DNA of 25,335 bases from a virus (IMGVR_UViG_3300032312_000624:1-25335), one strand, 5' to 3'; positions 4,512 through 6,633 are shown, counted from the stretch's first letter. The notes: generated by a model not told the origin, from the letters alone. Numbers and translations: made by a program.

Positions 4512-5302
4512 TTCATAGCCACCATAAACTTGTCGTGTTTTTCTTTGCGTTGATCCAGATGCTTCATGCCTGGATTAATAGGTTTAGTCACTGATTTAGT
4601 ATCTTTAAAACTATCAACTTTGTCACGAACACGTTCTTTCCAATACCAGACTGCTGCCTTGGCTGCTATCTCTGGTTTTTCTAAAAGCTCCGGCTTATTA
4701 ACAAGATCAACACCTAATGCTTCGCCTGCTTTCTTGTAGTTATATTTTCCGGTAAGTTGGATATAACCTCGACCTTTATATTTTGCACCATCGCCAGGTT
4801 TTGTATTTCCTAACACTTTAGCTTTCTTTGGAGCAAACTTAATATCATATTTTTTAAAATCTAAAGATCCGCCTATCTCTTTCATGTGCTTAAAATCTAA
4901 AGTTTCGTGTGCGCACTGTGCTAGAAAGGCAGCAAGTTCATTGCCTTTGATGCCTGCCTTCTCTGCTTCTTTCTTTAGATAAACTTCGTGCGGGTTGCCA
5001 GTCACAGATTTTGCTATATCTTTTTTACTGATTTGTGACACAGGATCTTTGGCCTTTGTTTTAGCTGCTTCGGCATCTCCAGGTGCTCCAAATGCTAGAG
5101 CTGTTCCTAATGCTCCAGCCGCAGCCCAATCTTTCCAGCCTTCGTCAACACTTTCTCCAACGGCACCACTGTCGCCACCAACTGCTCCGCTGTATCCTGA
5201 AGCATACCCGTATCCGCCATAAGGACCTGGACCGTAGGCCGCCCAATGTGGTTTACGTTTGCGTTTCTTTCTTTCGACAATAACGATTTCATTCGCTCTC
5301 AT
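4508..5302 (-). CDS. GH19 chitinase/lysozyme-like protein with modular N-terminal extension
   Basis: GH19 motifs AFLAQCAHET, YKGRGYIQLTGKYNY, AAVWYW, INPG; N-terminus MRANEIVIVE| plus a basic Gly/Tyr module plus VDE|GWKDWAAAGALGTALAFG...AEA. Confidence 0.9.
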   Translation of the reverse strand: MRANEIVIVERKKRKRKPHWAAYGPGPYGGYGYASGYSGAVGGDSGAVGESVDEGWKDWAAAGALGTALAFGAPGDAEAAKTKAKDPVSQISKKDIAKSVTGNPHEVYLKKEAEKAGIKGNELAAFLAQCAHETLDFKHMKEIGGSLDFKKYDIKFAPKKAKVLGNTKPGDGAKYKGRGYIQLTGKYNYKKAGEALGVDLVNKPELLEKPEIAAKAAVWYWKERVRDKVDSFKDTKSVTKPINPGMKHLDQRKEKHDKFMVAMK

Positions 5303-5378
5303 AAGGGATTCCAGCTAGGCCGCAGCCAAATCGAGCCAATGCTTCATACAGGGCTGTAAGGGTTTCTCGGACGGTCAT
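5289..5378 (-). CDS. Micro-ORF, 29 aa ([29 protein letters not shown])
   Basis: SD GGAGG (5392-5388) 9 nt before the ATG; fills the gap and overlaps the start of the GH19 gene by 14 nt. Below the ORF-track cutoff. Confidence 0.5.
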   Translation of the reverse strand: MTVRETLTALYEALARFGCGLAGIPYESE

Positions 5379-5421
5379 AGCCATCATCCTCCGGATAAAC
5401 TGGATAGTCGTTCGGGTTCAT
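5344..5421 (-). CDS. Micro-ORF, 25 aa ([25 protein letters not shown])
   Basis: ATG overlaps the erpA stop as ATGA (5421-5418), i.e. translational coupling. Below the ORF-track cutoff. Confidence 0.5.
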
Positions 5422-5744
5422 ATTGAAAAACTACTTCCGCACCCGCAGGTAGTTTGTGCATTAGGATTCTTGATACTGAAATTTGAACCATGTAAATCTT
5501 CTTTATAGTCAATGACAGCACCAGTCATGTAAGTCATGCTCATAGCATCTACTACTACTTTCCATTTGTCGTCGAGGGCAAATTCAAAATCGTCCTCATT
5601 TTTTTCTTCATCAAAAGTAAAACCATATTGAAAACCAGAACACCCTCCGCCTTGAACAAAAGTACGAAGCATAAGGTTTGGATTGTTTTCATCAATCAAT
5701 AAGTCTATGACTTTCTGTTTTGCAGCTTCTGTTATCTCAACCAT
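5418..5744 (-). CDS. erpA: A-type Fe-S cluster carrier (ErpA/IscA/HesB family)
   Basis: [21 protein letters not shown] and [14 protein letters not shown] with the three conserved Cys; SD GGAG. Confidence 0.93.
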
Positions 5745-5950
5745 TTTTTATCTCCTACTGGATTTTCGCCTGTTAGATAAGGCAAGCTGAACCATAACTG
5801 AAACCACTCAGGTGTTCCTGGTTTAATATCGTGTTTTTTCATAAGCTCACCTTTCTCATTGCCAGTGATACTTATGTTGCTACCTTCATAGGGTTGGTAG
5901 CCTTTGAACTCTGTAATGCCTGCGAGACGTTTTAATTCAGACAGTTCCAT
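5732..5950 (-). CDS. Small protein with ELKRLAGI leader
   Basis: [15 protein letters not shown]...[14 protein letters not shown], 72 aa; TAATG coupling. Confidence 0.8.
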
Positions 5951-6633
5951 TATTTTGTTGCCGGCTCACCAGTTTTATAAACTTCCCACTTCTTACCAGT
6001 TTGGTCTGATTTTCTGCGGGCCATGTCTTTTAATCTGTAGAACTCTCTTTCTTCTTCTGGACTATCAGCGTAAGCACCATAAGGTCCTGGAAATACTTTC
6101 CACTTCTTACCGTTAATGTAGACAGCAAAGTTATTGCCTGGTTCAGTGTTACCTTCATCCCAGTCTTCGGGATCTCTAACTCTTTCTACCACTCCTTCGG
6201 ACATATTCTTTAATAGCTCTTTTGCTTTTTCAACACTGACCATTGGTCTTGGATGCTTACCGTCCACTACAGACTGTAGATACTCTTTACTGAATCCTTT
6301 CGGTGCTTCTGCTTTTGCAGGAGCATTATCTGTTGCTTGTTGTGTAGAAATAGGTTTACCAGTTAACCGATTGATGTTAGGATCATCGCCGGGCATGACT
6401 CGAGCATTAGCCCCAGCAGCACCGAACGCCATTGCCCCAGCAAGTCCCGCCGCTGCAACTTTATCCTTCCAGCCTTCCTCTACACTTTCTGAATACTCTT
6501 TTTTCTTGTGCTTGAAGTCGCCTTGTTTTTCGGCTCTCTTTTTATCTTTGTGTGCGCCAGCACCTGCAGTCTTTTGATTCTTAGCTACGAAGTTACGAGG
6601 TTTACTCTGTGGTATAAATTCTTTTGCTTTCAT
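5950..6633 (-). CDS. Three-module putative internal head polyprotein
   Basis: MKAKEFI leader; basic module; VEE|GWKDKVAAAGLAGAMAFGAAGANA signal-like segment; VVE|R final module. Confidence 0.8.
   Translation of the reverse strand: MKAKEFIPQSKPRNFVAKNQKTAGAGAHKDKKRAEKQGDFKHKKKEYSESVEEGWKDKVAAAGLAGAMAFGAAGANARVMPGDDPNINRLTGKPISTQQATDNAPAKAEAPKGFSKEYLQSVVDGKHPRPMVSVEKAKELLKNMSEGVVERVRDPEDWDEGNTEPGNNFAVYINGKKWKVFPGPYGAYADSPEEEREFYRLKDMARRKSDQTGKKWEVYKTGEPATK

Follow-up and report, generated by a model that had tools for sequence, protein, structure and literature searches.

Two otherwise unrelated proteins encoded in a 25,335-base virus record (IMGVR_UViG_3300032312_000624, hereafter the window, with no sequence past its ends) share one internal element: a V-x-E site followed directly by the residues GWKD, a weakly hydrophobic segment and an A-x-A end. 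This motif is a real and widespread portable cassette, and it is independent of what lies upstream of it. We propose, with a probability of roughly 55%, that it is a masked Sec-type export signal on head-loaded polyproteins, which would be cut at the Glu, injected, exported by Sec and released at A-x-A. Such a two-stage address had been put forward in an original prediction made from the window, and it is supported by the envelope-type domains found behind the motif, as that prediction anticipated, by the co-occurrence of a hydrophobic residue at P3 (two before the Glu) with the hydrophobic stretch, and by a gp21-type protease in syntenic relatives.

A shared internal motif in two window proteins

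A Lys-rich gene cluster runs from about 8,400 to 2,700 on the minus strand of the window, and several of its members begin M-[RK]-x-x-E. The features of the two motif-bearing proteins, and of one protein used for comparison, are as follows.

5302-4508 (minus): P0001, 264 amino acids (aa); leader 1-54, predicted masked signal 55-79, then a basic linker with the GH19 lysozyme, 80-264
5141..5302 (minus): P0001 leader; starts M-R-A-x-E as other cluster genes do, with L/I/V-x-E at residues 10, 50 and 54
5141..5149 (minus): V-D-E54, predicted prohead-protease site; Glu 54 is nucleotides 5143-5141
5066..5140 (minus): P0001 masked signal-like segment G55-A79, 25 aa, ending A-E-A
4619..4948 (minus): GH19 core; candidate catalytic glutamates E133 (invariant) and E142 (at least 90% conserved)
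6633-5950 (minus): P0002, a 227-aa polyprotein; leader 1-53, predicted signal and cargo 54-146, third module 151-227
6475..6483 (minus): V-E-E53, predicted prohead-protease site; Glu 53 is nucleotides 6477-6475
6403..6474 (minus): P0002 masked signal-like segment G54-A77, 24 aa, ending A-N-A
6196..6402 (minus): orphan cargo R78-E146, 69 aa, isoelectric point (pI) 9.1; an extended part and two helices
5953..6183 (minus): third module 151-227; strand-strand-helix-strand
13177..13404 (minus): small protein whose N-terminal signal peptide is of the ordinary kind and exceeds the masked signals in hydrophobicity

The original prediction had placed two internal peptides about 53 residues into unrelated proteins. 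Both are in frame on the minus strand, in open reading frames (ORFs) 5302-4508 and 6633-5950; the placement was right, but the ranges as quoted were one codon short on each side, 5149-5066 and 6483-6403 beginning with the V-x-E Val and closing with the final Ala of A-x-A. P0001 and P0002 are indeed otherwise unrelated, as their only notable pairwise match begins at the motif (E 3e-4) and they have in common only V-x-E, GWKD, the hydrophobic stretch and A-x-A. The depth of about 53 residues holds in both genes but fails as a pattern, leaders ranging from 3 to 801 aa with a median of 136 among 156 motif copies; the equal depth in the two window genes is a coincidence.

EGWKD occurs twice in the 7,579 residues of the window ORFs, against 0.003 occurrences expected from composition. 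This count, together with the P3 bias in the contig scans described below, rules out a chance origin of the motif. A DNA-level repeat is likewise ruled out: the two copies align with many third-position differences, 20 of 23 bases being the same across the joint, and the codons at conserved motif residues vary, so that conservation acts at the protein level. We also rejected an internal start codon that would give an ordinary signal, since neither gene has an in-frame ATG, GTG or TTG from its first Met to the Trp; an internal start codon within 11 codons was found in 16 of 62 contig copies, at scattered positions.

In P0001, a Lys/Gln-rich linker joins the segment to the GH19 domain (PF00182, residues 119-228, E 1.6e-16, 61.2 bits against a cut-off of 25.5). 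Among its homologs (the best 120 of 2,068, to which the next counts also refer), the two-Glu GH19 pattern is kept in 120 of 120, and E133 and E142 are its candidate catalytic glutamates, as established for GH19; judged by sequence, P0001 carries an intact GH19 lysozyme. All 120 homologs also keep the motif before GH19 and have the Glu of the predicted cleavage site, which is invariant in alignment A3. The part upstream of the motif ranges from a few residues to whole enzymes, and the P0001 leader is freely swapped.

P0002 has L/I/V/M-x-E sites only at residues 53, 146 and 150, all at module borders, and E53, G54 and W55 are invariant in the 35 rows of alignment A2, which were picked as motif carriers. 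Its basic leader gives a weak DUF7230 match, below the cut-off. The AlphaFold model of P0002 is weak (mean predicted local distance difference test (pLDDT) 63.8, predicted template modelling score (pTM) 0.30), with pLDDT below 50 at both joints (46-52 and 147-154) and residues 54-68 modelled as helix at low confidence; it gave no PDB match at E 0.001, the only structure matches being two uncharacterised viral ones. Pfam, PHROG and the GenBank phages gave no match for the 69-aa cargo and Atlas nothing usable, and an Atlas search with the signal region was blank. The P0002 homologs chain the same modules in shuffled order, the signal-plus-cargo unit standing first, in the middle or last or being absent, and the third module moves about independently of that cassette. 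The 69-aa cargo could, in size and location only, be a Spackle-like periplasmic factor.

Signal-like character of the segment and spread of the cassette

The A-x-A end noted in the original prediction is present in both window copies, at lengths of 25 and 24 aa. Among 140 distinct motif copies, 93 have [AV]-[DENQH]-A ending at position 16-30, compared with 26.6 (maximum 42) in 1,000 shuffles, a 3.5-fold enrichment, and 73 of these 93 give lengths of 23-25. Near-identical motif copies contain uncharged runs of 17-19 residues. A Tat (twin-arginine translocation) signal was rejected, as neither segment has an Arg pair. The segment is very probably a real envelope-targeting signal.

Three properties of the family weigh against this interpretation. 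First, 47 of the 140 copies lack the tested A-x-A triplet. Second, the n-region, which the original prediction had called charged, is barely basic (net 0 in P0001, +1 in P0002); it has one Lys, and its side-chain net charge is 0 in 85 of the 140 copies, +1 or +2 in 54 and -1 in one, to which a free amino end would add one charge. Third, the mean hydrophobicity of the motif, 1.82, is lower than that of any of 13 ordinary N-terminal signals picked by hand from the same phages (mean 2.42, minimum 2.02). The likeness to the signal of 13404-13177 that had been pointed out is loose, with best 12-residue Kyte-Doolittle means of 1.64 and 1.89 against 2.68. The position is also unlike that of a Sec/signal peptidase I signal, since residues 55 and 54 would become N-terminal only after a cut. 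Classical secretory proteins are described as being exported post-translationally via SecA, with the signal recognition particle (SRP) joining only above a hydrophobicity threshold (PMC3981701). Given such a threshold, a mild segment would fit a signal that is silent while buried and works on the finished protein.

The same properties could mark a masked membrane anchor, which would be unmasked in the head and then act as a tether like that of signal-anchor-release (SAR) proteins, or insert as a Sec-free helix during ejection, holding the enzyme at the entry site. The near-neutral n-region and the missing triplets agree with this, several variants among the GH19 relatives read as plain anchors, and the segment is weakly hydrophobic and Gly/Ala-rich, as SAR domains are described to be (bioRxiv 10.1101/2025.11.12.688109). 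However, an anchor needs no polar-middle A-x-A, let alone one enriched at a fixed 23-25 residues and present in both window copies, and the last Ala is conserved amid varying neighbours (A79 in at least 90% of an alignment of 41 rows). We consider an anchor unlikely; the third of copies without the triplet, taken with the SAR-like features, means that the family may span cleaved and anchored forms.

A link between the segment and a protease site emerged from three DNA scans of viral contigs that fixed only [DE]-E-G-W-K-[DE], each yielding at least 120 loci of an estimated 390-480. The 362 matches include 263 in open frames of at least 100 codons, and a hydrophobic stretch follows 77 of these (62 distinct), the remainder comprising 148 distinct sequences. 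The unconstrained P3 residue is L/V/I/M in 58 of the 62 hydrophobic matches but in only 34 of the 148 others. The Fisher p value of 1e-22 is inflated by kinship; counted by cargo cluster, a hydrophobic P3 has the majority in 12 of 13. Two doubtful positives, L300 and L358, are included in the 58 of 62 and were removed before clustering. P3 is L/V/I/M also in 135 of the 140 distinct copies. Against a strict site stands the finding that only 70 of the 120 closest GH19 homologs have V/I/L at P3, the others having E (21), T (14), G (11), A (3) or F (1). Other gp21-like proteases (phiKZ, SPN3US) accept small residues at P3. T4 gp21 is reported to cut after L/I-X-E (PMC9026906), and the window sites are V-x-E. 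Starts of the type M-[RKLN]-x-x-E-[FILV], which may be equivalent to the T4 capsid targeting sequence, are found in 23 of 47 motif carriers and in 5 of 98 other proteins. We think it likely that the prohead protease unmasks the signal. Against this view, some leaders have only 10-13 residues, which may not suffice to mask a signal.

Since the homolog search with P0001 scored the motif too, we repeated it with the GH19 domain alone on longer proteins. Among the best 120 of 320 long proteins, 99 have a stretch of the E-G-W-K type, 19 a variant Glu-preceded hydrophobic stretch and 2 none; a Glu-preceded stretch is thus kept in 118 of the 120. In P0435 and P0502, a LysM-GH19 unit in the middle of a long polyprotein follows the Glu site directly, without a hydrophobic stretch, which counts against the proposed export signal; the two proteins are natural signal-less controls. 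Altogether, 215 motif copies fall into 53 cargo clusters, some of which are fragments, with one or two full copies per genome. A cultured carrier was found in none of nine GenBank phage records (controls, five of five), with a narrow profile that possibly missed variant signals. A general scan for [LIVMT]-x-E followed by a signal-like stretch recovered the known copies and no further motif type; over six records it gave 20 matches, compared with 18 in the D control and 9 in the K control.

Some carriers are large or composite. The polyproteins P0480-P0485 and P0431, of 1,400-1,860 aa, contain the signal-GH19 cassette, some together with PF12224 or nucleotidyltransferase modules. P0260, P0274, P0282, P0311, P0331 and P0335 have two masked signals each, before different cargos; the second cargo of P0335, possibly an assembly chimera, gives a FliK-like match (E 2.6e-10).

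The element might have no export role at all: it could serve in packaging or in binding the scaffold, or be a relic retained as a joint at which recombination shuffles modules. The near-identity of the window copies across the joint would suit such a role, as would the recurrence of the joint sequence without a hydrophobic stretch (L036) and the two GH19 homologs without one. The varied codons, however, indicate protein-level conservation, and a packaging element would not sit selectively before envelope domains or keep a signal-peptidase pattern. We regard this explanation as highly improbable.

Cargo domains, phage setting and the proposed route

Searching 1.84 billion representatives with a profile built from 29 motif copies gave 223 proteins at E 0.001, of which 150 were listed; 62 of the 150 have a Pfam match. 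The domains behind the motif in 50 of the listed proteins are GH19 (43), GH24 (5), LysM alone (1) and OmpA (1, below the cut-off). Counted as domains of these types, 62 lie behind the motif and none before it. Cytoplasmic types (GNAT, NT5C, deaminase, sigma-70 r4 and nucleotidyltransferase) lie before it in 10 cases and behind it in one, after another Glu joint. Among contig-derived motif proteins with full flanks, envelope domains, with one Hydrolase_2 added, occur in 19 of 25, and in a second set in 11 of 26. The cargos of homologs thus include hydrolases of three unrelated families (GH19, GH24 and Hydrolase_2) together with LysM and OmpA C-terminal domains, as the original prediction had expected; a mostly cytoplasmic set of downstream domains, which would speak against it, was not seen among the identifiable ones, cytoplasmic enzymes standing nearly always in front of the motif. 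The force of these counts is reduced by the 88 of 150 listed proteins without a Pfam domain, among them the family of the second window cargo, and by the concentration of 43 of the 50 envelope-bearing proteins in one GH19 family. In addition, GH19 is the last module in 109 of the best 120 of 320 long proteins, so that other domains tend to lie upstream anyway.

A second, distant gp21-bearing group has a Leu/Met-richer motif before an OmpA-like domain, among structural genes (L419:17901-19028 in G007, L421:3750-4925 in G008, L031, L035, L327 and L336). In 8 of 10 listed copies the residue directly behind the predicted cut is Gln, and Gln also follows an ordinary signal in G008. A rule of Gln after the signal-peptidase cut is described for Bacteroidetes (PMC5837995). 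As to a possible Bacteroidetes host, the capsid matches of the group are divided between a Flavobacterium phage and a Microcystis phage.

The window itself contains a B-family DNA polymerase fragment, a ClpA-like ATPase, a lysis cassette and baseplate genes; it has no head genes in its 25 kb, a point against a head-based reading. Gene order round the cargo cluster is shared by the window and two longer contigs, G001 (188 kb) and G002 (210 kb). Both contigs encode a T4 gp21-type protease (PF03420) and a gp23-type capsid protein, that of G001 matching T4 gp23 at E 2e-42. Among nine relatives searched, six have the gp21-type protease (G001, G002 and G005-G008), and the three misses are 18-41% complete. 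The GenBank capsids nearest to the gp23-type protein are 66-69% identical and belong to jumbo phages such as Phosso, PA5oct and CBB. The source is an uncultured large T4-related phage. The neighbouring genes are these:

5744-5418 (minus): gene for a host-like Fe-S carrier (ErpA/IscA) within the cargo cluster; position kept in G001 and G002
7307-6630 (minus): NMNAT/cytidylyltransferase-like neighbour, its leader of the same kind; identity to S-SCSM1 ORF91 39% over 194 aa
2716..3741 (minus): modular neighbour rich in Lys; its residues 28-108 match genes of S-SCSM1 that are annotated as virion proteins
4304-4059 (minus): 81-aa gene; first 31 residues match the G001 major capsid protein across a predicted L-x-E maturation site
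13422..14786 (minus): separate lysis cassette; GH19 endolysin and two spanin-like genes

Several of these genes may connect the cluster with the virion. ORF91 was found in cyanophage S-SCSM1's virion proteome, with a caution from its authors about carry-over (PMC9602691). The product of the 81-aa gene is identical to the G001 capsid protein at 16 of 28 positions (E 4e-6), and G001 has the capsid-like piece as an internal module as well (L124:15133-15822). Burkholderiales supply most of the best 80 bacterial relatives of the Fe-S carrier (60-68%), a weak hint of a diderm bacterial host. A gene that reads by eye as PhoH-like (16174-16914, plus strand) is the sole long plus-strand ORF of the window. 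ATAAATA, which resembles the T4 late-promoter core, lies just upstream of several genes in the area of the cargo cluster (8816-8810, 4318-4312, 4062-4056 and 2083-2077, minus strand); in the whole window it is not above chance (6 matches against 8.3 expected), and we did not use it as support.

The lysis genes bear on where the cargo enzyme acts. The cassette endolysin (14786-14157) is a signal-less, acidic GH19 protein (pI 5.5), and mature P0001 GH19 is basic (pI 9.7), like internal head proteins. We rejected P0001 as the lysis endolysin because a separate signal-less GH19 adjoins spanins in the window, G001, G002 and G005; these three relatives also encode both GH19 enzymes. The complete genome G006 has the motif but no GH19, and the lysozyme cargo is therefore accessory. 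At 13422-13404 the o-spanin-like gene adjoins that of the small signal-peptide protein, with no gene in between; at this place G001, G002 and G006 have membrane genes of holin-like type (by sequence reading, without a library match). We identified no holin in the window. A third GH19 of G001 (C1:108912-109094), in an 895-aa gene just upstream of a portal-like gene, is a candidate tail or entry lysozyme, apart from the cargo enzyme and the endolysin.

We envisage the following route for the masked export signal. A leader of the M-[RK]-x-x-E type would load the polyprotein into the prohead, a head-targeting role that we infer for the P0001 leader by analogy with T4 (PMC9026906). A gp21-type prohead protease would then cut after V-x-E, making the GWKD segment a new N-terminus inside the capsid, and the cut modules would be retained and later ejected as T4 internal proteins are. 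These are described as being ejected into the cytoplasm, even with fused beta-galactosidase (PMC9026906). In the new host, Sec would export the module post-translationally and cleavage at A-x-A by signal peptidase I would set it free, upon which GH19 could hydrolyse the wall. Weak hydrophobicity would avoid SRP capture in the producing cell and suit SecA, the sole route for a ready-made protein. For GH19 we can only guess at local wall loosening early in infection, which is the likeliest role and the weakest link of the model: an active lysozyme, once exported, seems a hazard to a cell that has just been infected.

Export might instead take place in the producing cell, if cut modules left the membrane-bound prohead, or if unpackaged copies used the segment as an extended signal, so that late wall weakening would couple lysis to head maturation. 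T4 proheads are described as maturing at the inner membrane, with propeptides exiting the head (PMC9026906); the existence of 10-13-aa leaders, and a window cassette without the multi-spanning holin-like gene of G001, G002 and G006, also agree with this. Yet T4 internal proteins of 8-20 kDa and Alt are reported to remain in the mature head (PMC9026906), a separate endolysin, spanins and a holin-like gene accompany the cargo GH19 in the relatives that encode it, the basic cargo enzyme resembles internal head proteins whereas the endolysin is acidic, and dozens of cargos are not lysins. Export in the producing cell seems improbable, and use of the signal in the next host is likely. Whether, in large T4-related phages, a widespread group, capsid maturation is generally an export switch, by which lysozymes, wall-binding proteins and dozens of orphan effectors would reach the periplasm before phage gene expression, seems to us evenly balanced.

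Comparison with known systems

The feature works like the T4 internal-protein system joined to an ordinary signal peptide, and its position fits neither a Sec signal nor a SAR domain. The combination, a proposed protease-unmasked signal on head-loaded proteins, was not described in the literature that we searched, which took in few subscription papers. The injected head proteins known so far act in the cytoplasm, and the known phage periplasmic proteins are either made after infection or delivered by the tail from outside. The motif offers a searchable tag for phage envelope effectors (53 cargo clusters, 215 copies, mostly orphan), which predictors of start-of-protein signals cannot flag. It also raises the question of why a phage on entry should have an active lysozyme exported.

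The closest parallel is with T4 IPI-III and Alt, their capsid targeting sequence and their processing by gp21 (PMC9026906). The likeness lies in a short Glu-containing leader, in L/I/V-x-E sites (L/I-X-E in T4), in basic mature products, in gp21 and gp23 of our relatives and in an expected cytoplasmic ejection. T4, however, removes a propeptide of 7-19 residues from single proteins, and the known targets of these are cytoplasmic, whereas here shuffled modules form chains and a second address, for the envelope, would be laid bare by the cut. The long propeptides (111-254 aa) of SPN3US gp245 substrates, shown by mass spectrometry to be removed after Glu, are also alike (PMC10052503). SPN3US belongs to a different phage lineage; no export signal is mentioned with its ejection proteins, and the word 'transmembrane' occurs 0 times in the main text (PMC10052503).

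SAR endolysins (N4 gp61, P1 Lyz and phage 21 R), as described, resemble P0001 in having a weakly hydrophobic, Gly/Ala-rich segment before a muramidase, but their SAR domain is at the translated N-terminus and serves lysis with a pinholin. SAR domains are not known to be cleaved. The segment here, by contrast, lies inside the protein, has A-x-A at its end in most copies, stands before non-enzymes too and occurs alongside a canonical endolysin. T4 Spackle (gp61.3) is reported to be a small protein with a cleaved signal of 22 residues that acts in the periplasm (PMC7650644). Unlike the 69-aa cargo, for which no sequence or fold match to it was found, Spackle is encoded with an ordinary N-terminal signal. 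T4 gp5 and T7 gp16 are particle-borne wall-cutting enzymes that reach the wall from outside, as parts of the tail or ejectosome. The cargo GH19 would likewise be a wall-cutting enzyme carried by the particle, but it would reach the wall from inside; if so, the masked signal would open a third route to the envelope, from within and at time zero.

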